The notes below the pieces were generated by a model. It made no database searches. It saw only the letters and a program-made list of their open reading frames with translations, and was not told the origin of the DNA. This document shows, in pieces, positions 2,861 to 62,807 of a stretch of 64,000 nucleotides of DNA. The translations under genes and the position numbers were made by a program. The DNA comes from Eledone cirrhosa (taxonomy: Eukaryota), in NCBI GenBank assembly GCA_964016885.1, contig OZ024742.1:31186001-31250000 (forward strand). Direction: 5' to 3'. Numbering within the stretch: position 1 is the first letter of the stretch; the number at the start of each line of letters is the position of its first letter.

Positions 2861-2881
2861 TTGTGTGTATATATATATATA

Positions 2882-3245
2882 TATAAAATAACAGGCGGCT
2901 GGACTGGTGTAATTCCTTAAAAGGTTTATTATACTATGATCATTTCAAGTCTTGAGGCGGCCGACCAGGCTAGAAGCTGCTAAATGTTCAGCCTCCCTCC
3001 TGTCTCTGATTTTCAGCCACATGGATTTTGTCTATTATATTCCTTTGTTATATTTCGAATACCTGATGATGTCACCGGATTCATACTGAACCCGGTCATT
3101 GAAATGATCATAGTGTAATAAACCTTTTAAGGAATTACACCAGTCCAGCCTCCTGTTATTTTATAATAATTAACTCCGTACTCGCACCACCAACTACACA
3201 AACGAAGACGGGTGAGTTGCATTACGTTGAGTGCTCTCCATAATA
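2882..3245 (+). mobile_element. Mini PLE pseudo-LTR insertion: ~67-bp inverted repeat (2882-2948 / 3099-3165) plus 3' tail, next to (TA)n
   Basis: TATAAAATAACAGGCGGCTGGACTGG...GATCATTTCAA is the reverse complement of TTGAAATGATC...CCTGTTATTTTATA. It contains a hammerhead. Confidence 0.75.
3059..3116 (+). ncRNA. Type I hammerhead ribozyme (PLE minimal type)
   Basis: ATAC-CTGATGA-stem II (ACCGG/CCGGT, TTCA/TGAA)-GAAA-TGATCA-TA-GTGT, with palindromic helix III ATGATCAT. Confidence 0.7.
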
Positions 3246-33060: not shown

Positions 33061-33181
33061 ATATTAATAAGAGGAATTCCAACTTTGTCTGATTTACTCG
33101 TTTTATTTACAATCCTTTAAAATATATATAATGGTATTATAATGAAATAGTATGATAGAATATTAAATTCTAAGTGTTAAT

Positions 33182-33220
33182 TGAACAAGTACTTTCATGC
33201 TTTCGCAATCTTCAGGTTCA
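33182..33220 (-). ncRNA. Minimal hammerhead, left arm
   Basis: Mirror of 38062-38100. Confidence 0.8.
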
Positions 33221-33595
33221 TGATATGTGGTGACAGTCGAGTTTGCAATTTTCAACTGTAATGAGATGGGTAAATTTCCTACCTTTTATACATTTTATAC
33301 AGAGAAAAGTGGCTCCAGAATGCAAAGCCCTGTAAACTGTATTTCGACCAATCAGTGTGTAGTTTCACTGAATTACTACAGCTGATTGGTTTAAGCGTCA
33401 CGGCTGGTTGAGCATGCTAACGACCAATAGTCATATCCAACGTATCAATTGTTTTGCTTTTTTGAAATGATGAAAATAGCATTTTCTATTAATCATCACC
33501 ATCAACATCACTTTTATTATTATTATTATTGTTGTTGTTGTTGTTGTTAGTGGTCGTGGTCATAGTGGTAGTAGAAGTAATACCCCTAGGCGTTA

Positions 33596-35631
33596 TTATT
33601 GTTCATTTAGCTTGGGTTTGAATTTATCAATAAAATTCTTTTCTTTGATTTTTCTCTTGATTTCATTTGGGCTGTGTAATTTGTAGAATGGGAATATTAT
33701 AAATATTCCCTGACCACATGTTGCCAGGTGGCCGCTTAGGGGTATCTGACGGACATTTGGGTCTCTGATTTGTTGACGGTGTACCCGTGCACGTTCCGAT
33801 AGTGCATTTCCAGTTTGACCGACATATAGTTCTTCACAATTCGGGCATTTAATGCAGTAAATTAGATTTCTGCTTTTGCAGTTCATATTTGCATTTGTGA
33901 ATATTTTTCCAGTTTTTGTTTTCATATATTGACCGGCGTGTATGGATTGACATGTGCCGCATCGATTATCATTGCATTTAGATACAGTGAATGATTGGTC
34001 TTTGTTGTTAAGGTCAAACTTTGCTTTTGTTAGCAATTGCTTCAAATTTTTTGGCTGTCTTTTACTAAGAGTCAAAGATCGATCTGTGATTAAGCCTTTT
34101 AATTCATTACTTTGAGCAATGATCGGTAGGTTTGCTTTGGCAGTGTTGAAGATATTCTGGTGACATGGGTTGTGTGTCATTATAAATGGTATGACCAGTT
34201 CTTGGTTTCTTCTTCTTTGGGTTGTTCTAAGTTGTTGTATAGGTATTTTTATAGCCCGCTGTATGCCATTTTCTATAAGTAGAGATGGGTATTTTTGTTT
34301 GAGCAAAAATTCTCTTAGTTCTGTTAGGCGTTTGTACCTGGTATTCGTATCTTCTACAATGGTACAAATTCTTCTGGCTAGGCAGTATGGGATGTTGCGT
34401 TTTGTATGAGGTGGATGGCACGACTTAAAATTCAGATATTGATGGGTGTCTGTGTGTTTATAATATATATCCGTGGTAATGGTGGTGTCGTTTTTGATTA
34501 TCATTATATCTAGGAATGGTAATTTGGTCCTACTCATCTCTTTTGTGAATTGGAGAGATGGGTGTAGGTTATTCAGGAGGATATTGAACTCATCCAGAGT
34601 ATCTAAAGATTCTGTCCAGATGATGAAACAGTCGTCAAGGTATCTCTTCCAAGATTTTTCAATGTACTTTCTAAAGTCAGTACTATATTTTTCCTCTATT
34701 TCTTGGTAGAGTTGTTGTTCTAAGTATCCCATTACAGAGTTCGCGTAAACGGGAGCAAACTTCGTTCCCATCTCTGTGCCTCTAATTTGGATGTAATTCT
34801 TTCCATTGAAGAAGAAAGTGTTGTTTTCCAGAATAAGTTTAACTGCGTCTAATATAAATGGCGCTGTGAATCTAATGGGAATCACTTCTCTATGTTTTTC
34901 CACCCAGTATTTAACCGCCTTTATTCCTAAATCATGTGTAATGTTGGTGTAAAGGCTTACCACATCAAAACTGAGTAGAAGTGAATTCGTTTCCGTGGTT
35001 TTGGGAAGATGGGACAGGAAGTCGATATCATCCCGGATGAAACTGGGTATGTGAATACATAGTGGTTTCAAAATAATGTCAACAAAATTGCTTAGACGGT
35101 GAGTGGGGCATGTTGGACCAGCTATAATAGGTCTAAGTTTTAAGTCTTTTGGGTGTCATAATTTAATGTACTCACTGTTTTGTTCTCTTACTGCCAGTTG
35201 TATTTCTTTTGACTTGTGAACTTTCGGTAGGCCATACAGGTTGCTGGGTTTCGGCTCAAAATTGGTGATGTAGTCTCTTTCCTTATCAGTAAATGAGTTG
35301 TGGTATTTTGAAGCCAGGTTGTTGATCTTCTTCATGATGTTGTGGTCTATATTTGACGGTATTTCATGATAGAATGTTGTGTCTTTCAGTTGTTCCTCAA
35401 CCAAATCCTTGTAGTATTCAGTATCCATTATAACAACTGCACCCCCTTTATCTGCTTGTTTAATTATTATTGTTTTATCATTTTGTATACGTTTAAGTGC
35501 AGACATTTCTGATTTGTTAATGTTTGGCCTAACATTAGTATTATGTCTAAGAGGAAATTTAGACAGGATGTCAATGTATTGGTCGAGATAGATATTTCTT
35601 CCTTTTGGCGGAGTGAAATTTGATTTATTCA
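33596..35631 (-). pseudogene. PLE RT/GIY-YIG ORF, left arm; 5'-truncated, one in-frame TGA (35156-35158)
   Basis: Mirror of 35651-37686. Confidence 0.9.
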
Positions 35632-35650
35632 AAAGGAAGAAATATCTATC

Positions 35651-37686
35651 TGAATAAATCAAATTTCACTCCGCCAAAAGGAAGAAATATCTATCTCGAC
35701 CAATACATTGACATCCTGTCTAAATTTCCTCTTAGACATAATACTAATGTTAGGCCAAACATTAACAAATCAGAAATGTCTGCACTTAAACGTATACAAA
35801 ATGATAAAACAATAATAATTAAACAAGCAGATAAAGGGGGTGCAGTTGTTATAATGGATACTGAATACTACAAGGATTTGGTTGAGGAACAACTGAAAGA
35901 CACAACATTCTATCATGAAATACCGTCAAATATAGACCACAACATCATGAAGAAGATCAACAACCTGGCTTCAAAATACCACAACTCATTTACTGATAAG
36001 GAAAGAGACTACATCACCAATTTTGAGCCGAAACCCAGCAACCTGTATGGCCTACCGAAAGTTCACAAGTCAAAAGAAATACAACTGGCAGTAAGAGAAC
36101 AAAACAGTGAGTACATTAAATTATGACACCCAAAAGACTTAAAACTTAGACCTATTATAGCTGGTCCAACATGCCCCACTCACCGTCTAAGCAATTTTGT
36201 TGACATTATTTTGAAACCACTATGTATTCACATACCCAGTTTCATCCGGGATGATATCGACTTCCTGTCCCATCTTCCCAAAACCACGGAAACGAATTCA
36301 CTTCTACTCAGTTTTGATGTGGTAAGCCTTTACACCAACATTACACATGATTTAGGAATAAAGGCGGTTAAATACTGGGTGGAAAAACATAGAGAAGTGA
36401 TTCCCATTAGATTCACAGCGCCATTTATATTAGACGCAGTTAAACTTATTCTGGAAAACAACACTTTCTTCTTCAATGGAAAGAATTACATCCAAATTAG
36501 AGGCACAGAGATGGGAACGAAGTTTGCTCCCGTTTACGCGAACTCTGTAATGGGATACTTAGAACAACAACTCTACCAAGAAATAGAGGAAAAATATAGT
36601 ACTGACTTTAGAAAGTACATTGAAAAATCTTGGAAGAGATACCTTGACGACTGTTTCATCATCTGGACAGAATCTTTAGATACTCTGGATGAGTTCAATA
36701 TCCTCCTGAATAACCTACACCCATCTCTCCAATTCACAAAAGAGATGAGTAGGACCAAATTACCATTCCTAGATATAATGATAATCAAAAACGACACCAC
36801 CATTACCACGGATATATATTATAAACACACAGACACCCATCAATATCTGAATTTTAAGTCGTGCCATCCACCTCATACAAAACGCAACATCCCATACTGC
36901 CTAGCCAGAAGAATTTGTACCATTGTAGAAGATACGAATACCAGGTACAAACGCCTAACAGAACTAAGAGAATTTTTGCTCAAACAAAAATACCCATCTC
37001 TACTTATAGAAAATGGCATACAGCGGGCTATAAAAATACCTATACAACAACTTAGAACAACCCAAAGAAGAAGAAACCAAGAACTGGTCATACCATTTAT
37101 AATGACACACAACCCATGTCACCAGAATATCTTCAACACTGCCAAAGCAAACCTACCGATCATTGCTCAAAGTAATGAATTAAAAGGCTTAATCACAGAT
37201 CGATCTTTGACTCTTAGTAAAAGACAGCCAAAAAATTTGAAGCAATTGCTAACAAAAGCAAAGTTTGACCTTAACAACAAAGACCAATCATTCACTGTAT
37301 CTAAATGCAATGATAATCGATGCGGCACATGTCAATCCATACACGCCGGTCAATATATGAAAACAAAAACTGGAAAAATATTCACAAATGCAAATATGAA
37401 CTGCAAAAGCAGAAATCTAATTTACTGCATTAAATGCCCGAATTGTGAAGAACTATATGTCGGTCAAACTGGAAATGCACTATCGGAACGTGCACGGGTA
37501 CACCGTCAACAAATCAGAGACCCAAATGTCCGTCAGATACCCCTAAGCGGCCACCTGGCAACATGTGGTCAGGGAATATTTATAATATTCCCATTCTACA
37601 AATTACACAGCCCAAATGAAATCAAGAGAAAAATCAAAGAAAAGAATTTTATTGATAAATTCAAACCCAAGCTAAATGAACAATAA
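35651..37686 (+). pseudogene. PLE RT/GIY-YIG ORF, right arm (Cys-linker, Neptune-like); 5'-truncated, one in-frame TGA (36124-36126)
   Basis: ADKGG, LYGLPKVHK, RPII, SFDVVSLYTNI, GTEMGTKFAP, WKRYLDDCF, CNDNRCGTC, LIYCIKCPNCEELYVGQT, H..H, PKLN. Confidence 0.9.
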
Positions 37687-38061
37687 TAACGCCTAGGGGT
37701 ATTACTTCTACTACCACTATGACCACGACCACTAACAACAACAACAACAACAATAATAATAATAATAAAAGTGATGTTGATGGTGATGATTAATAGAAAA
37801 TGCTATTTTCATCATTTCAAAAAAGCAAAACAATTGATACGTTGGATATGACTATTGGTCGTTAGCATGCTCAACCAGCCGTGACGCTTAAACCAATCAG
37901 CTGTAGTAATTCAGTGAAACTACACACTGATTGGTCGAAATACAGTTTACAGGGCTTTGCATTCTGGAGCCACTTTTCTCTGTATAAAATGTATAAAAGG
38001 TAGGAAATTTACCCATCTCATTACAGTTGAAAATTGCAAACTCGACTGTCACCACATATCA

Positions 38062-38100
38062 TGAACCTGAAGATTGCGAAAGCATGAAAGTACTTGTTCA
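38062..38100 (+). ncRNA. Minimal type I hammerhead in the PLE 3' pLTR
   Basis: TGAAC-CTGAAGA-TTGC(GAAA)GCAT-GAAA-GTAC-TT-GTTCA. Helix III is the palindrome AGTACT. Confidence 0.8.
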
Positions 38101-38430
38101 ATTAACACTTAGAATTTAATATTCTATCATACTATTTCATTATAATACCATTATATATATTTTAAAGGATTGTAAATAAAACGAGTAAATCAGACAAAGT
38201 TGGAATTCCTCTTATTAATATAATCTTCTATACACAATCATACACACCCGTGTATATTTACCTATCTATATCTATATGTATATATATATATGTATATATA
38301 TATGTATATATATGTATATATATATGTGTATATATATATATGTATATATATATTTATATATATGTATATATATATATATATGTGTATATATATATATATG
38401 TATATATATGTATATATATATATATATGTG

Positions 38431-38508: not shown

Positions 38509-38694
<186 letters not shown>

Positions 38695-39256
38695 GTTTTG
38701 CGAGGTTTTTTATATGAAATCGTGTGTCGAAACAGATATTGTTATATTTGGGGAGGGTCATATTTGCGTAATATTGCCAGAATTAATAACAGAACACACT
38801 CACTGTTTGGTTGGTTTTCGCTTCTCGCTGTCTTTTATATATATATATCTGCGATCTAACTTACTCGGTCCTCAATGTTGCCATTGACTGACCGGCGGTC
38901 AAAAATAATACAGATACAATATAGACACAAACACATATATATAGTTTACATAATTTACATAAATCTTTCGTTGCACATCTGCAACATCGTCAGTGGTGTT
39001 ATATTCATTGTTCCTCCTGTTGTGTTGTATGTCTACGCCATTTTTTTTTTGTTCAGTCTGTCTATATATTTATTTATTTATTTGCTTGTTTGTTTATCTT
39101 ATTTTATTTTGTCTTCTTTGCGCATGCGTTTGCGTGTGTGTATAGTGTGATGTGTGACTAGTGTGTATAGTGTTGTGTCTGCTGGGTGACTAGTGTGTGT
39201 TTATGTGCTTGTGTATGTATTTATTTATCTTATTTTATTTAATTTTATTTACTTAT

Positions 39257-40856
39257 TTATACTTCTCTTAGGTCAGTGTTGTTTGTTTGGGTGTTGTTGT
39301 TGTTCCACTCATTCTTTCTGTTTAGCTTTGGTCTTCTAATTTCTATTTCACTGGCCTCTCTGATTTGCCTATCTGCTGGGTCATTCCTATGTTTAGATAT
39401 TATTCTAATTTCTATGTTGTCTATGTTACCGTCATGTTGTTGTCTAGCATGTTCGTATAGTACTGACCCGTTTTTTCGTCCTTTTAGTTCCCCCCAGTGT
39501 TGGTCTATCCTTTCACCTATGCTACGAGCTGTCTCACCTATGTATGTTGTTGTCATGTTTCTGCAAGTACCCTCTGTACATCTTATGCTATAGACTACGT
39601 TTCTAGTTTTACAGTTTATCCGGGGGTTCACCTTACAAATGATACATTTCCTATTGGTACAGTGGGTTTTCTTAAAAGGGTAGGTTTTGCTGATCAGGGA
39701 TTTTATGGTGGTTCCTGGCTTTTCTACCACCTTTATTTTTAAGTGGGTCTTTCTCAGGGCCTTTCTACACTGGTTAGCTAATTTCCCTCCAGGGGTGGCG
39801 TCCACAAACATGACACTCTGATATCTCTGGTTGTCGTACCATGATGTGGCCTTCCCTATCTTATGTCTAGCCCTATCTAAGCTATTCCATGATTTGCTCC
39901 TGTATAGTGGGCAAATTCCTTTCATGTCCAGTTCTATGAGGGTCTTATACTTTTCCATGGCTCCTTCGTATACTCTGACTCTGTCTCTTTGGTTGTAGCC
40001 AGAGAACTGCATGCGGTTGATGAAGTGTTGGATGTGTCCTTCCATTTCTGTTGGGTCGCACATGCTGGACACATTCTTCATCACTCGTACCAAATCTGCG
40101 ATCAGAATATTAAACTTAGCACTACTGGACATTGCTGAGTTTTTGAGTATCAGGTATTTGGAGGCCATGGGTTTAGCATAGTGTGAGTGGAGAATTTGGG
40201 CTCTCTCGTCTATAGTGTTAATCCAGAGTTCTGTGTCTAATACAGGTAGTCTATTGTTAGGGTGTTTGGAAGGGAAGTCTATAGTTACAGTTATACTCTG
40301 GTGTATGGAATTAGCTATCTGCTGGATGCTTTCCATCGTGCTACGTTCTAAATCAAACTTGTTAGTGCTCTCTAGTGGGGGTGTTCTTATAACTATATTG
40401 ATATCGTCTACATAACGAGAGTACATGATGAGGTCTATGGAGCTTTCATTAAGGAGATCTTTAAGTCTCCTTTCCCACCATACCATGAAAAGGTTGGCAA
40501 CATCACCAGCTATGCTGACGCCGATGGCTGCTCCCTCATTTTGGGTGTAGATTTTCTCATTGAACTTAAATATGTGGCCCTTTAGGGTAGTTTTGATACT
40601 AGCCCCTATTGCATGTGCGACCATTTTTCTTACCTGATCAGTGTTTTGGGGGTCCGTATAGCTTTGGTCCACCCAATCCACCTTCCTATGGGAGTCTTTT
40701 TAGCCATTGAGGTTATGGTGGGGGGTCTACCTCTTATAGGTCTACTAGGGCAGAAACATCTAAGGTCATGGCTGTCTAGGTAGTCAGTGTCGTAGGTAAG
40801 TCTAAGTAGGAGGCCCAGTTCGTCTGTGTCGACGTCGCAGAACTCCACCTCACTCT
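39257..40856 (-). pseudogene. PLE RT C-terminal half + GIY-YIG, left arm
   Basis: GAAIGVSIAGDVA, YSRYVDDIN, CTNRKCIIC, VVYSIRC..C...YIGETARS. Confidence 0.9.
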
Positions 40857-43184
40857 TTAATAAAAGAGTTTGCATACCACAGCAAATAGATGACGAGACG
40901 GAGGCACAGTTCACCATAGCTAGAAACAAGATTAGACAAGTAGTAGACAGGTACACTATGAGACAGAGCAGACCAGAGGCCCAACAACTTGGGATAAAAC
41001 CTGTAGAAGGCTTGGTTAGCCTCAAGCAGCGCACAAGGGATGGTGAGGTAGTGTGTCTACCCACAGATAAGTTCTGGTAGGATGTCAATAGATAGCATGC
41101 CGAACTACATCGAGGCAATGCAACCCCACATCACCAACACGAGCGAAGTTGCACAACTAACACACGATGGGAGAGAAAAAATCCTCAACGCTCACATGAT
41201 GATGTGGACTGACATCCTAAAGCCAAGCAGACGCACTGCCAACAACTTCCAGGCGTCTAACAATGGCATACCACCCTTGTATGGGCTCCGCAAGGACCAC
41301 AAGACAGTCGACGACCCGACAACAGGACCACCAACAAGACCCGTATGCGGAGCTAATATAGCTAGCAACTACAGGATCTCCTACTTCCTCTCAATGGTTA
41401 TACGCCCCATAATCAAGATGTCCCAGATGTATGTGAAAGTACAGAGGACCTCCTCAGCAGAATCAGTGAGTGCAACAAAAACAGGAGCCTATCCAACTGC
41501 ATAATAGGCAGCATGGATGTGGTGTCACTGTACCCATCCATTAACATTGATTTTGCTGTGAAAAGATGTGTGGAGATGATCATTGAGAGTGAGGTGAAGT
41601 TCTGCGATGTCGACACAGACGAACTGGGCCTCCTACTTAGACTTACCTACGACACTGACTACCTAGACAGCCATGACCTTAGATGTTTCTGCCCTAGTAG
41701 ACCTATAAGAGGTAGACCCCCCACCATAACCTCAATGGCTAAAAAGACTCCCATAGGAAGGTGGATTGGGTGGACCAAAGCTATACGGACCCCCAAAACA
41801 CTGATCAGGTAAGAAAAATGGTCGCACATGCAATAGGGGCTAGTATCAAAACTACCCTAAAGGGCCACATATTTAAGTTCAATGAGAAAATCTACACCCA
41901 AAATGAGGGAGCAGCCATCGGCGTCAGCATAGCTGGTGATGTTGCCAACCTTTTCATGGTATGGTGGGAAAGGAGACTTAAAGATCTCCTTAATGAAAGC
42001 TCCATAGACCTCATCATGTACTCTCGTTATGTAGACGATATCAATATAGTTATAAGAACACCCCCACTAGAGAGCACTAACAAGTTTGATTTAGAACGTA
42101 GCACGATGGAAAGCATCCAGCAGATAGCTAATTCCATACACCAGAGTATAACTGTAACTATAGACTTCCCTTCCAAACACCCTAACAATAGACTACCTGT
42201 ATTAGACACAGAACTCTGGATTAACACTATAGACGAGAGAGCCCAAATTCTCCACTCACACTATGCTAAACCCATGGCCTCCAAATACCTGATACTCAAA
42301 AACTCAGCAATGTCCAGTAGTGCTAAGTTTAATATTCTGATCGCAGATTTGGTACGAGTGATGAAGAATGTGTCCAGCATGTGCGACCCAACAGAAATGG
42401 AAGGACACATCCAACACTTCATCAACCGCATGCAGTTCTCTGGCTACAACCAAAGAGACAGAGTCAGAGTATACGAAGGAGCCATGGAAAAGTATAAGAC
42501 CCTCATAGAACTGGACATGAAAGGAATTTGCCCACTATACAGGAGCAAATCATGGAATAGCTTAGATAGGGCTAGACATAAGATAGGGAAGGCCACATCA
42601 TGGTACGACAACCAGAGATATCAGAGTGTCATGTTTGTGGACGCCACCCCTGGAGGGAAATTAGCTAACCAGTGTAGAAAGGCCCTGAGAAAGACCACTT
42701 AAAAATAAAGGTGGTAGAAAAGCCAGGAACCACCATAAAATCCCTGATCAGCAAAACCTACCCTTTTAAGAAAACCCACTGTACCAATAGGAAATGTATC
42801 ATTTGTAAGGTGAACCCCCGGATAAACTGTAAAACTAGAAACGTAGTCTATAGCATAAGATGTACAGAGGGTACTTGCAGAAACATGACAACAACATACA
42901 TAGGTGAGACAGCTCGTAGCATAGGTGAAAGGATAGACCAACACTGGGGGGAACTAAAAGGACGAAAAAACGGGTCAGTACTATACGAACATGCTAGACA
43001 ACAACATGACGGTAACATAGACAACATAGAAATTAGAATAATATCTAAACATAGGAATGACCCAGCAGATAGGCAAATCAGAGAGGCCAGTGAAATAGAA
43101 ATTAGAAGACCAAAGCTAAACAGAAAGAATGAGTGGAACAACAACAACACCCAAACAAACAACACTGACCTAAGAGAAGTATAA
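40857..43184 (+). pseudogene. PLE RT + GIY-YIG, right copy, four single-base frameshifts
   Basis: ORF pieces 40826-41080, 41082-41504, 41513-41812, 41761-42702 and 42711-43184 are colinear with the element at 38-2320. Confidence 0.9.
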
Positions 43185-43443
43185 ATAAGTAAATAAAATT
43201 AAATAAAATAAGATAAATAAATACATACACAAGCACATAAACACACACTAGTCACCCAGCAGACACAACACTATACACACTAGTCACACATCACACTATA
43301 CACACACGCAAACGCATGCGCAAAGAAGACAAAATAAAATAAGATAAACAAACAAGCAAATAAATAAATAAATATATAGACAGACTGAACAAAAAAAAAA
43401 TGGCGTAGACATACAACACAACAGGAGGAACAATGAATATAAC

Positions 43444-43484
43444 ACCACTGACGATGTTGCAGATGTGCAACGAAAGATTTATGT
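43444..43484 (+). ncRNA. Minimal hammerhead in the pLTR (mirror copy at 38957-38997, minus strand)
   Basis: CA-CTGACGA-TGTTGCA(GATG)TGCAAC-GAAA-GATT-TA-TG. Helix I is short. Confidence 0.6.
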
Positions 43485-43708
43485 AAATTATGTAAACTAT
43501 ATATATGTGTTTGTGTCTATATTGTATCTGTATTATTTTTGACCGCCGGTCAGTCAATGGCAACATTGAGGACCGAGTAAGTTAGATCGCAGATATATAT
43601 ATATAAAAGACAGCGAGAAGCGAAAACCAACCAAACAGTGAGTGTGTTCTGTTATTAATTCTGGCAATATTACGCAAATATGACCCTCCCCAAATATAAC
43701 AATATATG

Positions 43709-43825
<117 letters not shown>

Positions 43826-45097: not shown

Positions 45098-45668
45098 CCC
45101 AGTACAACCTGTCTCATGGTCGGGTCGTTGGCGACTAAACTGGCAACCCCACCAAGGTTTCTTGGTGAGAAGGGTAACTTTGGACATCCTGCAGGACTAA
45201 AAACAAAACCTGTCAAAGGGCAAAGAGCTCTTAAGAGTCAATGGCCATCCAAAATCACCGGGAGAGATGACCCCTTAGCCTTTGTCAAAGCAGAATTCTA
45301 GGAGAAGGAAAACTCTGATATAACACCTGCAACCCTGATGGTATCCAATGATGTTGACTTGTTCTTCTTTTTGGTAAATATCATCTTGGTTAAGAGAGTG
45401 GGACTGGCTTTGTGCAGTGCCTTTGCTCACTATAAAAGCTTCACGGCACAGGCATTGCTTTATATCTGGAGATCTCTCTGCACTTGTCGTAACATGGTAC
45501 CATGGGCCCAGCACTATGTGTCAATAATTGTCACAAGTGTAGTGTTTGTACCAGAGTATTCAAGTCGCTAGCTGGACTAAAAAGTCACTTGTTCAGCGCA
45601 TCGGTAGGGGTTCTCCTACATGGGTATAAAGTAGTGGCCGTACTCGAAAACGAGTTAGCATACACCAT
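45098..45668 (+). mobile_element. Non-autonomous, internally deleted RTE derivative, copy 1
   Basis: RTE-like 5' UTR joined to a 3' end encoding [17 protein letters not shown], with an ACTCG/CGAGT hairpin tail like that at 11996-12027. Confidence 0.65.
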
Positions 45669-46130: not shown

Positions 46131-46657
46131 TCAGGTCACCAGTTGGTGCTACTGGTAACATGTATCCCAGTACAACCTGTCTCATGGTCGGGTCGTTGGC
46201 GACTAAACTGGCAACCCCACCAAGGTTTCTTGGTGAGGAGGGTGACTTTGGACATCCTGCAGGACTAAAAACAAAACCTGTCAAAGGGCAAAGGAGCTCT
46301 TAAGAGTCAATGGCCATCCAAAATCACCGGGAGAGATGACCCCTTAGCCTTTGTCAAGGCAGAATTCTAGGAGAAGGAAAACTCTGATATAACACCCTGT
46401 GCAGTGCCTTTGCTCACTATAAAAGCTTCACGGCACAGGCATTGCTTTATATCTGGAGATCTCTCTGCACTTGTCGTCACATGGTACCATGGGCCCTGCA
46501 CTATGTGTCAGTAATTGTCACAAGTGTAGTGTTTGTACCAGAGTTTTCAAGTCGCTGGCTGGACTAAAAAGTCACACTCGTTCAGCGCATCGGTAGGGGT
46601 TCTCCTACATGGATATAAAGTAGTGGCCGTACTCGAAAACGAGTTGACAGCCACCAT
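46131..46657 (+). mobile_element. RTE derivative, copy 2 (extra ~35 bp at 5', ~70-bp internal deletion)
   Basis: Homologous to 45098-45668. Confidence 0.65.
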
Positions 46658-46687
46658 ATGTATATATATATATATGTATATATATAT

Positions 46688-46737
<50 letters not shown>

Positions 46738-46822
46738 ATATATGTGTATATATATATATATGTATATATATATATGTGTGTATATATATATGTATATATA
46801 TATATATGTATATATATATATG

Positions 46823-46855
<33 letters not shown>

Positions 46856-46962
46856 GTGTATATATACGTATATATATATATATATGTATATATATGTATA
46901 TATGTATATATATATATATGTATATATATGTATATATGTATATATATATGTATATATATATG

Positions 46963-46997
<35 letters not shown>

Positions 46998-47031
46998 GTA
47001 TATATATGTATATGTATATATATATATATGT

Positions 47032-47065
<34 letters not shown>

Positions 47066-47142
47066 GTATATATACGTATATGTATATATATATATATATA
47101 TATGTATATAATATATATATATATATATGTATATATATGTAT

Positions 47143-47176
<34 letters not shown>

Positions 47177-47193
47177 GTATATATACGTATATG

Positions 47194-47248
<55 letters not shown>

Positions 47249-47249
47249 G

Positions 47250-47298
<49 letters not shown>

Positions 47299-47499
47299 GT
47301 ATATATATATATATATATGTATATGTATATATATGTATATATATATATGTATATATATGTATATATATATATATGTATATGTATATATATGTATATATAT
47401 ATATATATGTATATATATGTATATAATTATATATATATGTATATGTATATATATGTATATGTATATATATGTATATATATATATATATGTATATATATG

Positions 47500-47531
<32 letters not shown>

Positions 47532-47589
47532 CATATATATACATATATGCATATATACATGTATATACATACATATATATATATACATA

Positions 47590-47621
<32 letters not shown>

Positions 47622-47639
47622 CATATATATATATACATA

Positions 47640-47678
<39 letters not shown>

Positions 47679-47679
47679 G

Positions 47680-47710
<31 letters not shown>

Positions 47711-47721
47711 GTATATATATG

Positions 47722-47778
<57 letters not shown>

Positions 47779-48032
47779 GTATATATATGTATATATATAT
47801 ATGTATATATATGTATATATATATATGTATATATATATATGTATATATATATATGTATATGTATATATATATATGTATATATATGTATATATATATATGT
47901 CTATATATGTATATATATATATGTATATATATATATATGTATATATATATGTATATATATATATGTATATATATATGTATATATATGTATATGTATATAT
48001 ATATGTATATATATATATGTATATATATATGT

Positions 48033-48064
<32 letters not shown>

Positions 48065-48440
48065 GTATATATATATGTATATATAAGTATATATGTATAT
48101 TTATATGTATATATATATGTATATATAAGTATATATGTATATATATATATGTATATATATATATATGAATATATATAAGTATATATGTATATATATGTAT
48201 ATATATATATATGAATATATATACATATATGTATATATATGTATATATATATATATGAATATATATACATATATGTATATATATGTATATATATATATAT
48301 ATGAATATATATATATATATATGTATATATATGTATATATATATATGTATATATATATGTATATATATGTAAGTATATATGTATATATATGTATATATAT
48401 ATATGTATGTATATATATATATGTATATATATATATATGT

Positions 48441-48481
<41 letters not shown>

Positions 48482-48499
48482 TATGTATATATATATATG

Positions 48500-48531
<32 letters not shown>

Positions 48532-48654
48532 TATGTATATATATATATGTATGTATATACATGTATATATGCATATATGTATATATATGTATATATATAT
48601 ATATGTATGTATATGTATATGTATATATATATATGTATGTATATGTATATATAT

Positions 48655-49225
48655 CCCAGTACAACCTGTCTCATGGTCGGGTCGTTGGCGACTAAACTGG
48701 CAACCCCACCAAGGTTTCTTGGTGAGAAGGGTAACTTTGGACATCCTGCAGGACTAAAAACAAAACCTGTCAAAGGGCAAAGAGCTCTTAAGAGTCAATG
48801 GCCATCCAAAATCACCGGGAGAGATGACCCCTTAGCCTTTGTCAAAGCAGAATTCTAGGAGAAGGAAAACTCTGATATAACACCTGCAACCCTGATGGTA
48901 TCCAATGATGTTGACTTGTTCTTCTTTTTGGTAAATATCATCTTGGTTAAGAGAGTGGGACTGGCTTTGTGCAGTGCCTTTGCTCACTATAAAAGCTTCA
49001 CGGCACAGGCATTGCTTTATATCTGGAGATCTCTCTGCACTTGTCGTAACATGGTACCATGGGCCCAGCACTATGTGTCAATAATTGTCACAAGTGTAGT
49101 GTTTGTACCAGAGTTTTCAAGTCGCTAGCTGGACTAAAAAGTCACTTGTTCAGCGCATCGGTAGGGGTTCTCCTACATGGGTATAAAGTAGTGGCCGTAC
49201 TCGAAAACGAGTTGGCATACACCAT
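48655..49225 (+). mobile_element. RTE derivative, copy 3 (duplicate of copy 1 including microsatellite flanks)
   Basis: Near-identical to copy 1 at offset 3557 bp, with matching upstream TA-variant pattern. Confidence 0.7.
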
Positions 49226-49301
49226 GTATACATGTATGTGTATCTATGTATGTATGTATATATATACATATATGTATATATATATATATGTATATATATA
49301 T

Positions 49302-49349
<48 letters not shown>

Positions 49350-49434
49350 ATATATGTGTATATATATATATATGTATATATATATATGTGTGTATATATA
49401 TATGTATATATATATATGTGTATATATATATATG

Positions 49435-49468
<34 letters not shown>

Positions 49469-49574
49469 TGTGTATATATATGTATATATATATATATGTA
49501 TATATATGTATATATGTATATATATATATATGTATATATATGTATATATGTATATATATATGTATATATATATG

Positions 49575-49609
<35 letters not shown>

Positions 49610-49643
49610 GTATATATATGTATATGTATATATATATATATGT

Positions 49644-49677
<34 letters not shown>

Positions 49678-49694
49678 GTATATATACGTATATG

Positions 49695-49747
<53 letters not shown>

Positions 49748-49751
49748 GTAT

Positions 49752-49785
<34 letters not shown>

Positions 49786-49802
49786 GTATATATACGTATA
49801 TG

Positions 49803-49859
<57 letters not shown>

Positions 49860-49860
49860 G

Positions 49861-49896
<36 letters not shown>

Positions 49897-49994
49897 TGTA
49901 TATATATGTATATATATATATATATATGTATATATATGTATATGTATATATATGTATATATATATATGTATATATATGTCTATATATATATATG

Positions 49995-50028
<34 letters not shown>

Positions 50029-50140
50029 TGTATATAATTATATATATATGTATATATATGTATATGTATATATATGTATATATATATATATATGTATATA
50101 TATGTATATATATATATATATGTATATGTATATATATATG

Positions 50141-50187
<47 letters not shown>

Positions 50188-50282
50188 GTATATGTATATA
50201 TATATGTATATATATATATATGTATATGTATATATATATATGTATATATATATATATGTATATGTATATATATATATGTATA

Positions 50283-50319
<37 letters not shown>

Positions 50320-50320
50320 G

Positions 50321-50413
<93 letters not shown>

Positions 50414-50424
50414 GTATATATATG

Positions 50425-50481
<57 letters not shown>

Positions 50482-50508
50482 GTATATATATATATATGTA
50501 TATATATG

Positions 50509-50541
<33 letters not shown>

Positions 50542-50542
50542 G

Positions 50543-50593
<51 letters not shown>

Positions 50594-50604
50594 GTATATA
50601 TATG

Positions 50605-50659
<55 letters not shown>

Positions 50660-50832
50660 GTATATATATGTATATATATATATGTATATATATGTATATA
50701 TATATATGTATATATATATATGTATATATATATATGTATATGTATATATATATATGTATATGTATATATATATATGTATATATATGTATATATATATGTC
50801 TATATATGTATATATATATATGTCTATATATG

Positions 50833-50887
<55 letters not shown>

Positions 50888-51967
50888 GTATATATATATG
50901 TATATATATGTATATGTAATATATATATGTATATATATATATGTATATATATATGTATATATATGTATATGTATATATATATATGTATATATATATGTAT
51001 ATATAATTATATATGTATATTTATATGTATATATATATGTATATATAAGTATATATGTATATATATATATGTATATATATATATATGAATATATATAAGT
51101 ATATATGTATATATATATATGTATATATATATATATGAATATATATAAGTATATATGTATATATATGTATATATATATATGAATATATATACATATATGT
51201 ATATATATGTATATATATATATATGAATATATATACATATATGTATATATATGTATATATATATATATATGAATATATATATATATATATGTATATATAT
51301 GTATATATATATATGTATATATATATGTATATATATGTAAGTATATATGTATATATATGTATATATATATATATATGTATATATATATGTATAAATATAT
51401 ATGTATATATATATGTATATATATATATATAAGTATATATATATGTATATGTATATACATATATATATGTATATATATATGTATATATATATATAAGTAT
51501 ATATGTATATATATATGTATATGTATATATATATGTATATATATATAAGTATATATGTATATATATGTATATGTATATATATATGTAAGTATGTATGTAT
51601 ACGTACATACATATATGTATACAGATGTACAGTAGCATGTATATATATACATACAGGCACACATACATATATGCACGTATCAGTTTACCGAACATTTATT
51701 ATAATGCTCGGTTTGTTCGTTTGTAAACAAACAAATAAACAGCCTGAATTACGCCGTACAGTGTTTAGGCAACCACGTCACCTTTTTGTTCAACACTGAC
51801 ACAGGAACGATGTACTAGTTTCAAGCTTATTAGCTATCGTAAGCACCGTATACCTTTCTGCACCGTATACCTTACCGTATACGATATGCAAATTAGGCTG
51901 CTAAGCCGTTAATTTTCATAAGGAAAGTATATACTTTCGGACGTTCAACCATCTGGCAGAAAGGTAT

Positions 51968-52010
51968 ACGGTGCTGACGATAGCTAATAAGCTTGAAACT
52001 AGTACATCGT
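51968..52010 (+). ncRNA. Minimal type I hammerhead
   Basis: ACGGTG-CTGACGA-TAGCT(AATA)AGCTT-GAAA-CTAG-TA-CATCGT. The inverted copy at 51807-51849 has a mutated core, CTTACGA. Confidence 0.85.
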
Positions 52011-52409
52011 TCCTGTGTCAGTGTTGAACAAAAAGGTGACGTGGTTGCCTAAACACTGTACGGCGTAATTCAGGCTGTTTGTTTGTTTACAAACGAACAA
52101 ACCGAGCATTATAATAAAGGTTCGGTAAACTGATACGTGCATATATGTATGTGTGCCAGTATGTATATATATACATGCTACTGTACGTTTGTATACATAT
52201 ATGTATGTACATATACATACATACTTACATTTAAGTAAGTGCCGTACTAAGAGTGAGAAATGAAATTTCGTTTCATTCTATTCCATTTATTGTTTACGGT
52301 GCGCCTGGCCGACTGAACTCACTCGATATGCAAATTAGGCTGCTCAGCCGGTAATTTTCATAAGGAAAGTATATACTTTCGGACGTTCAACCATCTGGCA
52401 GAAAGGTAT

Positions 52410-52452
52410 ACGGTGCTGACGATAGCTAATACGCTTGAAACTAGTACATCGT
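52410..52452 (+). ncRNA. Minimal type I hammerhead, second unit
   Basis: Same as 51968-52010, offset +442. Confidence 0.8.
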
Positions 52453-52808
52453 TCCTGTGTCAGTGTTGAACAAAAAGGTGACGTGGTTGCCTAAACACTG
52501 TACAGCGTAATTCAGGCTTTTTGTTTGTTTACAAACGAACAAACCGAGCATTATAATAAATGTTCGTAAACTGATACGTGCATATATGTATGTGTGCCTG
52601 TATGTATATATATACATGCTACTGTACGTCTGTATACATATATGTATATACGTATACATACATACTTACATTTAAGTAAGTGCTGTACTAAGAGTGAGAA
52701 ATGAAATTTCGTTTCATTCTATTCCATTTATATATATATGTATATATATATAAGTATATATGTATATATGTATATGTATATATATATAAGTATATATGTA
52801 TATATATG

Positions 52809-52861
<53 letters not shown>

Positions 52862-52940
52862 GAATATATATATATATGTATATATATATAAGTCTACATG
52901 TATATATATGTATATATATATATTTATATATATATATGTT

Positions 52941-52971
<31 letters not shown>

Positions 52972-53002
52972 GTATATATGTATATATATGTATATATGTA
53001 TA

Positions 53003-53042
<40 letters not shown>

Positions 53043-53048
53043 GATATG

Positions 53049-53081
<33 letters not shown>

Positions 53082-53158
53082 GTATATATATATGTATATA
53101 TATATATATATGTATTTATATATGTATATATATGTGTATATATATGTATATATATATG

Positions 53159-53222
<64 letters not shown>

Positions 53223-53234
53223 TGTATATATATA

Positions 53235-54128
53235 TGGTATTTTCTTCGGGGTTATAAGAGGCTTAGCTCTATTTCTCGACCGTTATATCACGTGACTATC
53301 TCCCCCTCCGCCTTTTGGGATTCTTTCTCACGTCGTGTAGACGCGTTCTTGAGACTAGTAAAATGAGGTATCCTCTTGATAAGTCGGCAGACCTCGCAGG
53401 GACTCTATATCTTTATGATGTATTGTTTTTGTTTATGCCACGAAACTACGTAGTCGAGGAATCTAGGAGCAGTTTAGGTATGATACATTTTATTACTAAT
53501 TATATCTAAATGTTTCTTCTCTCTTCATAATGTATTTTTAACTCTGATACTGGTTCAATCTGGTTCAACCGGATTGGTCTGTCCGAGTCATTCATTGAGC
53601 AGCATCGGTGAGGTTGGCACCCTTAACTCGCGGTTGGGTGCGGATGCATTCATGTATGTGTGTGTGTCCGCATGTATCTGTGTGTTTCTAAATATATTGT
53701 TAATAACTCCCTCTGGTCGAGCAACCTTTGAAGTGTGGGGACTGCTGAAAAGCTTCCATTACTCATACTCCTCGTCTCCTTCACCACCTCTTCTACGGCT
53801 TCGATATAAATACCCCCTCCGCCTCCGTGGTATTTTATTCGGGGTTATAAGAGGCTTAGCTCTGTTTCTCGACCGTTATATCGCGTGACTATCTCCCCCC
53901 TCCGCCTTTTGGGATTCTTTCTCACGTCGTGTAGACGCGTTCTTGAGACTAGTAAAATGAGGTATCCTCTTAATAAGTCGGCAGACCTCGCAGGGACTCT
54001 ATATCTTTATGATGTATTGTTTTTGTTTATGCCACGAAACTACGTAGTCGAGGAATCTAGGAGCAGTTTAGGTATGATACATTTTATTACTAATTATATC
54101 TAAATGTTTCTTCTCTCTTCATAATGTA
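53235..54128 (+). mobile_element. ~594-bp non-coding unit in 1.5 tandem copies with a variant hammerhead; retrozyme-like
   Basis: TGGTATTTT.TTCGGGGTTATAAGAGG at 53235 and 53828, flanked by (TA)n. Confidence 0.8.
53371..53460 (+). ncRNA. Type I hammerhead with U3:A8 core and long helix II (copy at 53965-54054 has G5A)
   Basis: TCCTC-TTGATAA-GT.GGCA...TGCC.AC-GAAAC-TACGTA-GTC-GAGGA. Helix III is the palindrome ACTACGTAGT. Confidence 0.78.
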
Positions 54129-54250
54129 TATGTATATATATGTATATATATGTATATATATGTATATATATATATATGTATATGTATATATATGTATATG
54201 TATATATATATGTATATGTATATATGTGTATATATATATATATGTATATG

Positions 54251-59923: not shown

Positions 59924-61891
59924 TTAGGTAAGGCGGGTCTTCTCTATTACTGAGTACCGCCAAAGGTCTCGGTCCAGTGACATTGTCTTGGAGAGGTGTA
60001 AGCGTGTGAGGTCGGAATTTATCAGCTCGTCCCATGTTTTTCTGGGTCTGCCTACTCCGTGGCTACCGTCTATCTTTATTGCCCTGCACTTTGTTATACA
60101 GCTGTCGTCTTTCATGCGCATCACGTGACCGTACCAACGTAGCCTTCTCTCGAGTAAACAACATCTGATCCCTCTTATTTCTAATTTTTTCCTTAGTTCG
60201 TCTATGCTTTGCCGTTCACGTATATTACTATTGCACATCCAGCGGAGCATGCAAGCTTCGTTCCTCTCTAGTCTGCGTATATCCTCTGCACACAATGCCC
60301 AGGTCTCACTGCCATGCAGCATTGCTGTTCGTATGCAGGCATCGTATAACCTGCCTTTCATTTTTAGGCAGAACCCTCTAGCGGCTAATAGTGGTATAAG
60401 CTCTCTGAACTTTTTCCATCCAGTTCTGACTCTAGCTACTGTACTTTCAGAGCACCCTCCCCCACTGCTGATTTTGTCACCCAGGTAACGGAAGCTGTCC
60501 ACTATTTCTATAGAACCCTCTGCGCAGTTGAAGGAGCTAGTATTCTGTGGGCACTTGCTGCTACTTATTGCACCAGAGCACCGGCCACATGTAAAATCTA
60601 TGTTCTTAGTTAGCTTACCTGTGATCCCACTACATCTTTTATGCACCCATACTTTGCATTTGGGACATAAAATGGAGTTTCTACCTACGCCTTTCCTACA
60701 CACTGAGCATGGCCACTTCCCAGATGGGACCGCCGCCTTATTTTCTTTCCTACAAACTAGAACTTTAGTCTTAGCCAGGTTAATTTTAAGGCCTTTTGAT
60801 TCTAGGCCGTGCTTCCATGTTTGGAATTTCTTCTCTAGTTCGGTCATTGATTCAGCTATGAGCGTTAGATCATCTGCGTATAGGAGTTCCCATGGGAAGC
60901 CGGTCTTGAACTCCTCTGTTATAGCCTGAAGGGCAATAATAAATAGTAGGGGGCTAAGAACAGAGCCCTGATGGACACCAACTTTTACGCTAAACTCTTC
61001 ACTATATTCGTTGTTAATTCTAACCTTACTGACTGTTTCTTTATACATGGCTTGTATAGCTCTCACAAGCCATTCGTCAACACCTAGTTTTCTAAGAGAC
61101 CACCAGATAATGGAACGGGGAACTCTGTCGAAGGCTTTCTCCAAGTCGACGAAAGCTAAGTATAGGGGTTTACTTTTAGCTAGGTACTTCTCCTGTAGTT
61201 GTCGTACAATGAAAAGAGCGTCTGTGGTACTTTTGCCTGACACAAACCCGAACTGCATTTCATCTAGATCAATTCTCTCTCTGATTAGTTGCGCTATTAC
61301 TTTTTCCGTGACCTTCATGACCTGGTCGATTAATTTAATGCCTCTATAGTTACTCCTATCTAGGGCATCTCCTTTTCCCTTATAGCAGTTAACGATGATG
61401 CTGCTACGCCAGTCCTTCGGAACAACCCCATTCTGTACGACTTGGTTAACTATCCGGGTGACCATGGTGTGTCCCACCGAACCAGATGCCTTCAGCATCT
61501 CAGCAACTATTTCCGAAGGACCAGCCGCCTTACCCGTCTTCATATCTTTGATTGCCTTGCTTATTGTACTACCCTGGACTAACACTGCTGGTCCCTCTAT
61601 TGGGTCGATGTGGGGGAGACTGTCTTTCTCCCATTTGTTCTCCTCATTTAGAAGCCTTTCGTAGTGACACTTCCAAGCTACCTTCTTATCAGCGTCGGTG
61701 ATGGCAAGTATGCCATCATCGTTAAGTACACACTTCTCCCCGACAATATCACGGTTTTCCTTGACACATTGCCTGGCAATCCTGAACATCTCACGTTTTT
61801 GGTCCTCATGTTGTAGAACATGCTTGAACTTTCTTTCCTCTGCTTCCCTTCTTGCGAAGTACACTTGTCTCCTAGCTTCCCTCCTGGCCAC
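59924..61891 (-). CDS. LINE reverse transcriptase with embedded PHD-like Cys/His finger
   Basis: NYRGIKL, QFGFVSGKSTTDA, FVDLEKAFDRV, GVHQGSVLSPLLF, LLYADD, CSVC..CPKC..VHKRC..CGRC, MLHGSETW, RLRWYGHV. Confidence 0.93.
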   Translation of the reverse strand: MARREARRQVYFARREAEERKFKHVLQHEDQKREMFRIARQCVKENRDIVGEKCVLNDDGILAITDADKKVAWKCHYERLLNEENKWEKDSLPHIDPIEGPAVLVQGSTISKAIKDMKTGKAAGPSEIVAEMLKASGSVGHTMVTRIVNQVVQNGVVPKDWRSSIIVNCYKGKGDALDRSNYRGIKLIDQVMKVTEKVIAQLIRERIDLDEMQFGFVSGKSTTDALFIVRQLQEKYLAKSKPLYLAFVDLEKAFDRVPRSIIWWSLRKLGVDEWLVRAIQAMYKETVSKVRINNEYSEEFSVKVGVHQGSVLSPLLFIIALQAITEEFKTGFPWELLYADDLTLIAESMTELEKKFQTWKHGLESKGLKINLAKTKVLVCRKENKAAVPSGKWPCSVCRKGVGRNSILCPKCKVWVHKRCSGITGKLTKNIDFTCGRCSGAISSSKCPQNTSSFNCAEGSIEIVDSFRYLGDKISSGGGCSESTVARVRTGWKKFRELIPLLAARGFCLKMKGRLYDACIRTAMLHGSETWALCAEDIRRLERNEACMLRWMCNSNIRERQSIDELRKKLEIRGIRCCLLERRLRWYGHVMRMKDDSCITKCRAIKIDGSHGVGRPRKTWDELINSDLTRLHLSKTMSLDRDLWRYSVIEKTRLT

Positions 61892-61988
61892 TTGATAGTC
61901 TTCTCTACTTCCCCCATCCCGCCATACTTTCCAAGCCTGCTTTTGGCCTTAATTGACTCCTCCACCTTACTGTTCCACCACCATGTTA

Positions 61989-62702
61989 CTACTCGCTAAT
62001 TATCAGTCTATGTTGGGAGGTGAATTCTTCATGGGGGAGGGATTTAGTGTTAACAACAGACACTCTGTCACGTCTTCTGGTAAGGATATAATCTACCTGG
62101 CTTGTGTGTTCCCCCGATCTATAGGTGATCAAGTGATTGTCTCGTTTTTTGAAGTTAGTGTTACAGATAGTTAAGTTATTTGCGTCGCAGAATTCCAGGA
62201 TTCTGGAGCCTTCCTCATTTCTAGTACCGAACCCATAGCCTCCATGGATTCCGTCATAGCCGTCACAATGTTGTCCAACGTGACCATTTAGGTCGGCTGC
62301 AATAACTATATAGTCACTGTCGGTTATTTGGGAGGTAGCGAGCATCAGTGTCTCGTAGAATCTGTCTTTTATAGCGCCGGGCAGTCCGGATTGGGGTGCG
62401 TACGCAGATATTACTGTCACCGTAGTTTTATTGAGGACAAGTCTTATTTTAATTATTCTGTCGTTCACTCTATTTACGTCTATTATCTTATCTGCCCACT
62501 TTTCTGCTACCATGATTCCTACCCCACCCAACCCATTGTCATTTCCCACCCAGAAAAGCTTATAGCATCGTTCTTTACCCACGATGAATCTAGCCGACCC
62601 TCCCCTCCACCTGGTCTCTTGAATACAACAAACATCGACCTCCTTACGTTCAAGCATTTCTACAACCTCGTTAGAGCGACCCTTTAAGGTGCCTACATTC
62701 AT
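61989..62702 (-). CDS. LINE apurinic-like endonuclease domain
   Basis: NVGTL, CIQETRW, GVGI, SAYAPQ, DLNGHVG, VDYIL, QHR. Joined to TWWWN by a deletion at ~61990. Confidence 0.9.
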   Translation of the reverse strand: MNVGTLKGRSNEVVEMLERKEVDVCCIQETRWRGGSARFIVGKERCYKLFWVGNDNGLGGVGIMVAEKWADKIIDVNRVNDRIIKIRLVLNKTTVTVISAYAPQSGLPGAIKDRFYETLMLATSQITDSDYIVIAADLNGHVGQHCDGYDGIHGGYGFGTRNEEGSRILEFCDANNLTICNTNFKKRDNHLITYRSGEHTSQVDYILTRRRDRVSVVNTKSLPHEEFTSQHRLIISE

Positions 62703-62807
62703 GGTACCAACTCTGAAGTTTTGGATTGCGTTTGGAGGGTGGGAGCGGTGGGGCGCGGGGGGGATGGGGTTATGTTAGCCATGGATCTCGGGAATTTTAC
62801 CCGCCTT

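Follow-up and report, generated by a model that had tools for sequence, protein, structure and literature searches.

Layout of the element

The window is the whole stretch of Eledone cirrhosa DNA that was analyzed (64,000 nt). It contains a non-coding tandem repeat that forms one insertion within a long TA microsatellite (Table 1). The original prediction had placed this element at 51583..52731; the right edge stands, and the left edge lies at 51580 instead. The predicted 442-bp tandem repeat was recovered, with a period of 442 and 97.1% identity between the two units over 409 nt. No ORF had been expected, and only five ATG-started frames were found (42-72 aa), all over low-complexity sequence. 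The upstream inverted copy, said to lack the final ~60 nt, lacks 57 nt; it is also 5'-truncated and carries one change in the catalytic core. Judged by its CTTACGA core, the hammerhead of the inverted arm is likely inactive.

Table 1. Features of the retrozyme insertion and its flanks (window positions)
Feature	Positions	Strand	Description
Left flank	46656..51579	.	TA-rich microsatellite (target)
Whole insertion	51580..52731	.	Short-ended inverted arm and long-ended direct arm of 1.9 units
Inverted arm	51580..51861	-	Unit positions 75-352; ends at the short (internal) fixed site; 96.1% identity to unit 1
Inverted-arm hammerhead	51807..51849	-	Core altered to CTTACGA; limits from alignment offset
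Junction insert	51862..51881	-	20 nt; sequence immediately upstream of the hammerhead, re-copied in two short pieces
Unit 1	51882..52323	+	442 bp
Octamer plus flanks	51885..51896	+	TATGCAAATTAG; same sequence as the -78 element of a host U6 gene; doubles as 5' arm of an RNA hairpin
TATA-like box	51927..51933	+	GTATATA; 41 nt after octamer start
Hammerhead 1	51968..52010	+	Type I; 6-bp helix I, 3-bp helix II plus U.U, palindromic helix III; cleavage predicted after 52004
Monomer or circle	52005..52446	+	Predicted; 442 nt, cut to cut
Unit 2	52324..52731	+	Unit positions 1-409; ends at the long fixed site
Second octamer 12-mer	52327..52338	+	
Second TATA-like box	52369..52375	+	
Hammerhead 2	52410..52452	+	Type I; predicted cut after 52446
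Tail	52675..52731	+	57 nt between the two fixed ends, with a small hairpin; lacking in the inverted arm; internal copy at 52234-52290
Right flank	52732..53235	.	TA-rich microsatellite (target)

The position at which unit 1 begins (51882) is only the 5' truncation point of the direct arm. Unit position 1 was considered as a natural start and was rejected as an artefact of query choice. We infer that the junction insert came from template jumps. The output of a repeat finder on the window was dominated by TA repeats. Local near-identical duplications lie at 45098-45666 / 48655-49223 (569 bp) and 53236-53535 / 53829-54129 (301 bp), in both cases beside TA tracts, and at 24674-26089 (807 bp).

Hammerheads and predicted monomer

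The CTGACGA cores of the direct arm are at 51974 and 52416, and stem I begins at 51968 and 52410. Canonical minimal hammerheads had been predicted at these positions. The positions are correct; the word minimal does not apply in its technical sense (PMC4209133), given a 6-bp helix I, a palindromic helix III of 2 bp, and a U.U mismatch at 10.1-11.1 in place of G-C. Helix I of hammerhead 1 can be extended to 51943-52029. The 39 Rfam matches at E<=10 included no hammerhead family, only microsatellite-driven miRNA matches below the gathering score; the hammerheads were therefore identified by manual pairing. The axolotl retrozyme hammerhead HHR_Amex2 is active with a U.U at the base of helix II, and it cleaves better as a dimer (PMC7229834). 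Eight of nine Xenopus retrozyme dimers showed no cleavage in vitro (bioRxiv 10.64898/2026.07.22.740005).

The predicted cuts give the 442-nt monomer that was originally proposed. It folds at -136 kcal/mol (z = -5.1), and none of 100 shuffles was equally stable. The catalytic core is not formed in the minimum-energy folds. It is kept across two retrozyme families that are ~66% alike.

A loose pattern that does not consider pairing gave further hammerhead-like cores in the window at 57354 (+), 63456 (-), 63716 (+) and 15473 (-). A small element at 2852-3161 has inverted ends (2886-2948 / 3099-3161) and a hammerhead-like core at 3063, and it adjoins a TA run.

Copy number, families and arrays

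The exact hammerhead motif has 10,367 matches in the 3.0-Gb genome, against 0 for the reversed control. Subfamilies of the 442-bp family have units of ~420-540 bp, with identities from 97-99% down to ~80%. A sister family (L070:4682-6144; L101-L130, contig C1) has a 469-bp unit, is ~66% alike and encodes a fully canonical hammerhead. Its pattern has 3,332 matches versus 2 for the control, and the 100 matches listed all belong to the sister family. It contains the octamer and hairpins of the 442-bp family and has two fixed ends ~70 nt apart. A decayed copy at L328:1400-1560, possibly of a third family, has the same octamer 12-mer ahead of a hammerhead. Diverged matches to the unit are also present in public sequence runs of two other organisms. 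The six runs listed with matches included no RNA data set, which speaks neither for nor against expression.

Some copies form large arrays. On contig C2 (382988000-383007999, L064-L065), 442-bp units ~95% alike run end to end over at least 20 kb, and motif matches extend over ~50 kb. L300 (contig C1, 14040500-14050400) contains at least 14 sister-family units, with a short end on one side and an inverted long arm on the other. Variants in L300 recur every second unit, which suggests later expansion of a two-unit block. A region with an apparent period of 3.5 kb was considered as a PLE and was rejected, as it consists of duplicated retrozyme arrays.

By its sequence, the insertion at 51580-52731 is a copy of an abundant non-LTR retrozyme, for which cleavage and RNA are predicted. 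The testable features of such elements were found: a short tandem unit with one type I hammerhead each, no coding capacity, dispersed copies in high number and a self-paired monomer. The retrozyme class and its link to PLEs are already known, and the family described here is a new member.

Insertion ends

Arms were taken from 77 of 83 position-ordered loci of the 442-bp family (6 overlaps dropped), 29 of 30 best matches (one near-duplicate removed) and 30 of 43 sister-family loci (13 overlaps removed; L101-111 and L300-302 excluded). All samples were picked via the hammerhead motif, mostly from the first 71 Mb of one contig. Seven insertions cut by a locus edge were not counted.

Two fixed sites account for 200 of the 224 arm ends, and the windows that define them cover ~13% of the unit. 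They are at positions ~342-352 or 409 in the 442-bp family and at ~359-364 or 433 in the sister family, which leaves a tail of 57-74 nt between them. TA repeats adjoin 170 of these 200 ends. At non-simple targets (n=4), duplications of 12-18 bp overlap with the ends of the element; a further match, 33 bp long, lies within TA-rich sequence. Independent public contigs have TA-repeat loose ends at the long site (52290), and as contigs they cannot show transcript starts or circles.

The original prediction called for a survey of the tandem plus inverted layout at other loci. It was found as 73 inverted pairs in the 136 loci. Fifty-eight pairs join a long arm to a short arm, one is long+long, none is short+short, and 14 have one arm that ends elsewhere. 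The classifiable pairs are thus long+short in 58 of 59 cases. Short ends also occur alone (30 single insertions). Within pairs, the long arm stops where the short arm starts in 6 of 58 cases, with 5.5 expected. Single-RNA twin priming therefore does not fit the geometry and was set aside, and the two arms were likely made independently.

The two fixed ends and the long+short pairing match the tail signature of PLEs. A tail with two sites is described as unique to PLEs and corresponds in vitro to two reverse-transcription start sites (PMC11167929). The inverted 5' copy with a one-sided tail is likewise known from PLEs (PMC8557442; PMC3846280). The insertions here combine the two-site one-sided tail, an inverted 5'-truncated copy with a partial tandem, and a TA target with a short duplication.

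Mobilization

The element is very likely a non-LTR retrozyme inserted in trans by a PLE reverse transcriptase and GIY-YIG endonuclease, with arms that end at two sites 57 nt apart. The original claim that a non-coding retrozyme was integrated by PLE machinery agrees with the two fixed ends, the long+short pairs, the TA targets, the 12-18-bp duplications and the lack of continuation into an ORF. The inverted-copy-minus-tail layout is common to both autonomous PLEs of the window, as had been noted, with a one-sided extension of ~45 nt. On the other side, the partner PLE was not found in the loci searched, and the tail of 57-74 nt is longer than the usual 30-40 bp.

The PLE at 33065-38262 is a 5'-truncated inverted pair with RT and GIY-YIG matches, hammerheads at 33215 (-) and 38067 (+), and a ~45-nt tail on one arm. 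The PLE at ~38690-43709, also an inverted pair, has hammerheads at 38993 (-) and 43448 (+). It is related to a PLE at 246-2311, with 72% DNA identity and a cysteine-rich C-terminal endonuclease region. The window also contains a LINE at 59924-62774 (-), which encodes an AP endonuclease, RT and a C-terminal PHD finger.

The comparison of 3' tails proposed in the original prediction gave no shared tail with the window's PLEs or in the DNA downstream of 30 of the 150 listed GIY-YIG loci. The unit has no detectable sequence in common with the window's PLEs, and the retrozyme tail was not shared in 29 variant-hammerhead loci. No RT plus GIY-YIG ORF flanked by the unit was found in 210 loci with four protein and six DNA queries, and no sampled copy acted as the end of an autonomous element. 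The four PLE protein queries matched in 33 of the 210 loci. In the junction test with the six PLE DNA queries, one PLE stretch ran colinear into the unit, and that stretch proved to be an unrelated family's terminus. The remaining contacts were of two kinds: PLE copies into which a retrozyme had inserted, and head-to-head junctions, which involved several different PLE families. A scan of 19 nearby ORFs gave three Pfam matches, two of LINE type and one GIY-YIG that points away from the element.

At L062:5579-9815, L099:1003-1350, L265:2561-4101 and L054:618-1236, retrozyme arms are joined at their 5' side to 5'-truncated PLEs. These joins are possible template switches during insertion. They were rejected as a pointer to one partner, as the PLE families differ. 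At L062:5536-7839, a 768-aa PLE ORF has no Pfam match at E<=0.001, and ~1.8 kb of AT-rich sequence precedes the hammerhead. At L007, L031 and L067, retrozymes have inserted at an AT-rich hairpin in the terminal repeats of a single PLE family, and two of the three share an insertion position.

Two other origins were weighed against insertion in trans. The repeat could be only the pseudo-LTR (pLTR) of an autonomous PLE, derived from 5'-truncated insertions and then expanded in tandem as DNA. In its favor, pLTRs have hammerheads and a tail arranged in the same way, homology links Xenopus retrozymes to them (bioRxiv 10.64898/2026.07.22.740005), and one rare master element could escape notice among 10,000 copies. 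This origin is nevertheless very unlikely, since the units join tail to head without a gap. Arms longer than one unit also carry both fixed ends, so that whole tandem stretches were reverse transcribed. The refuting outcome named in the original prediction, that copies always run into an RT ORF, did not occur; PLE proteins are present at 33 of 210 loci, and the single colinear case belongs to an unrelated family. Equally improbable is mobilization by a LINE of the RTE, CR1 or L2 type through target-primed reverse transcription with twin priming. LINEs are abundant in the genome, and twin priming yields 5' inversions. Against it, the unit itself lacks a poly(A) or repeat tail, some short ends are solitary, and long arms do not stop at the short site beyond expectation.

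Template

Units in genomic copies read through the predicted cleavage site and are contiguous. This continuity makes a circle or a uniform multimer the likely template. The 5' ends are scattered around the unit, and no pile-up was found among the 224 arms at either the cut site or the predicted start. A uniform spread would put ~5.5 of the 224 ends at each place; 3 were found 5 nt or less from the cut site and 8 near the predicted transcription start. Arms longer than 450 nt number 116 of 224, and those longer than 900 nt 22 of 224. In these 5'-end and length counts, one arm per locus was selected for its hammerhead, which biases them.

In young insertions of the sister family, within-arm divergence is 0.72% and between-arm divergence 0.75%; different insertions diverge by 1.82%. 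Among insertion-unique variants, 50 are common to all overlapping segments of their insertion and 317 are private. These patterns are most simply explained by repeated copying of a single unit, as in a circle. The shared variants could also be explained by a uniform source array or by later gene conversion. In the window's subfamily, divergence is similar within an arm (2.2%) and between insertions (1.9%). Units of the large array (n=5) diverge by 4.4%, more than either value, so the large array is unlikely to have been a linear template. A search for RNA-editing scars gave a raw A>G excess among shared variants that was no longer significant (15 versus 7, p = 0.13) when restricted to insertion-unique variants at clean sites.

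Octamer-TATA block

The octamer was located in the unit near 51886 and 52328, as predicted. The box at 51927-51933 places the predicted start near 51958. Five host Pol III genes (three U6, U6atac and RNase MRP; loci L155-L157, L216 and L222, upstream 100 bp) contain TATG[CG][AT]AAT[TG]AG at -77 to -79 and GTATA[AT]A at -31. The 12-mer has an exact match in both retrozyme families. A match to a U1/U2-type promoter was not found in eight upstream regions. These regions reach 12-mer scores of at most 10.0 versus 16.8-18.9; the best of them (10.0) stands against 18.6. The U1/U2 genes contain AATTA near -90 and TCAGT near -57. Three host U6 genes have a distal element near -265 to -290, and a TTACCTCCC-like word occurs near -260 to -290 in both snRNA gene classes (U6-type and U1/U2). 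Of 16 further U6 matches, two in a tandem array have the 12-mer and TATA block, and 14 were found on inspection to be without the full block. Five of six U6atac matches are also without it. Matches without the block look like retrocopies. The promoter of newt satellite 2 reportedly includes an octamer.

The 12-mer score was reached by 2 of 3,000 and 1 of 3,000 shuffles for the two families, and the score of the octamer and TATA pair by 0 of 1,000, with a spacing range set after seeing the data. When a near-match is required, the octamer-TATA spacing is 41 in 77 of 80 copies, and the distance from TATA to ribozyme is 39 or 47. The spacing is 41 and 40 nt in the retrozyme families versus 45-47 in the host genes, about 5 nt or half a helical turn short, so the retrozyme box does not match the host-type spacing of the U6 promoter. 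The 8-mer is constant in six of six subfamily majority sequences; its hairpin partner arm varies and keeps one mismatch. Runs of T4-T7 are present in every subfamily. The suggestion that the octamer is an internal promoter element gains from the host U6-type match; its function stays that of a candidate, given the short spacing and the hairpin. We lean narrowly toward reading the block as a promoter. That such a promoter would be served by Pol III is a tentative reading of the same words, and we consider it doubtful.

Both the template and the block have a competing account. A PLE could have used an uncut linear multimer from a uniform source, with no role for circles or cleavage. An anole PLE used uncleaved RNA in vitro, and its ribozyme mutants still inserted (PMC11167929). 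Only 22 of 224 arms exceed 900 nt, and the shared variants are compatible with a uniform array. This account is rather unlikely, given that 5' ends do not pile up at the predicted start, the sampled large array is too heterogeneous, and the catalytic core is kept in both families. Circles have also been demonstrated for other retrozymes, in coral, mussel and axolotl (PMC7229834). Between a circle and a uniform uncut multimer, we favor the circle with some reserve. The octamer-TATA block, for its part, may be RNA structure only, forming two hairpins, with transcription from flanking read-through or by Pol II. The octamer pairs with a downstream arm, the TATA lies within the second hairpin, and the one variable position beside the octamer (A/G) retains pairing. 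The spacing falls half a helical turn short, and the T runs would hinder Pol III read-through. The invariance of the 8-mer beside a varying partner arm points the other way, as do the rarity of equal scores among shuffles and the fixed spacing of 41 beside a variable TATA-to-ribozyme distance. A purely structural role is a serious contender to which we give somewhat less than even weight.

Proposed mechanism and significance

Transcription of a tandem copy would be driven by the octamer-TATA block, which lies shortly before the ribozyme. The hammerheads would cut the read-through RNA, probably as a dimer, to give a 442-nt monomer whose 3' end holds the promoter and which a host ligase would close. 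The PLE enzyme would then nick both strands of an AT-rich target ~12-18 bp apart. Priming would occur at the long site for one arm and at the short site for its partner. Each would run around the template for a random distance, and the 5' ends would be joined head to head. Some copies may later expand into satellite arrays. The promoter would survive retrotransposition because tandem transcription and ribozyme cutting put it inside the circle. The full combination, a dimeric Penelope enzyme that copies two templates at once, invariably starting at the long site on one and the short site on the other and so yielding back-to-back arms, and a self-promoting RNA circle with a compact U6-type promoter, is put forward tentatively, as a possibility we think unlikely in its entirety.

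Arguments over which enzyme moves animal retrozymes have so far relied on co-occurrence and homology. The arm-end rule (58 of 59 pairs) adds a footprint open to counting in any genome and points to two precise RNA positions for testing in the PLE assay already established in vitro. Tail formation in PLEs is constrained as well, since each start site would give rise to its own arm and the two arms were likely made independently. Should the octamer-TATA block be a true promoter, it would account for the expression of a protein-free repeat and would give this animal group a compact native promoter for short RNAs. The data give quantitative structural support to the proposed mechanism, and the promoter, as a reading of sequence, is plausible but unproven.

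Comparison with known systems

Literature searches, mainly of openly available papers without supplements, found no cephalopod retrozyme, long+short rule or U6-like retrozyme block. Evidence from arm ends for PLE mobilization was not found in the literature examined. Further related literature includes PMC6962438.

The closest relatives are the metazoan non-LTR retrozymes (Cervera and de la Pena 2020, PMC7229834). These also have tandem non-coding units of 150-450 bp with one type I hammerhead each, low GC, a self-paired monomer and PLEs in the genome, and axolotl HHR_Amex2 has the same U.U at the base of helix II. Their mobilization by PLEs was proposed from shared traits. Their RNA has been demonstrated; for the family here it is predicted. 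The two fixed ends, the long+short rule and the promoter block are found here and are not described in the available part of that paper.

Li, Clavereau and Pollet (2026, bioRxiv 10.64898/2026.07.22.740005) treat retrozymes as non-autonomous PLE sequences, arguing from co-occurrence and pLTR homology, and describe monomers, dimers and long arrays. They reach the same conclusion on the partner. Their evidence, in the text available, is mostly from vertebrates, whereas here it comes from insertion anatomy in an invertebrate, with no pLTR homologue found.

Insertions of EN+ PLEs (PMC8557442, PMC3846280, PMC11167929) also consist of a partial tandem and an inverted 5'-truncated copy with a one-sided tail. 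The tail likewise lies between two RT start sites downstream of the hammerhead, and targets are AT-rich with short duplications. The usual tail is 30-40 bp in those elements, and here it is 57-74 nt and there is no ORF. Non-autonomous PLEs have been noted in Chlamys (PMC8557442). MRC1 and the others are non-coding, multicopy, head-to-tail and PLE-mobilized, as here. They share 3' sequence with autonomous families, whereas none was found here, and canonical hammerheads are described as absent from the Chlamys PLE clade.

Newt satellite 2 (Coats, Zhang and Epstein 1994, cited in PMC2220036) is also a hammerhead satellite with an internal snRNA-type promoter. It is transcribed by Pol II, whereas the words in the retrozyme match the host Pol III genes U6, U6atac and MRP and not U1/U2.
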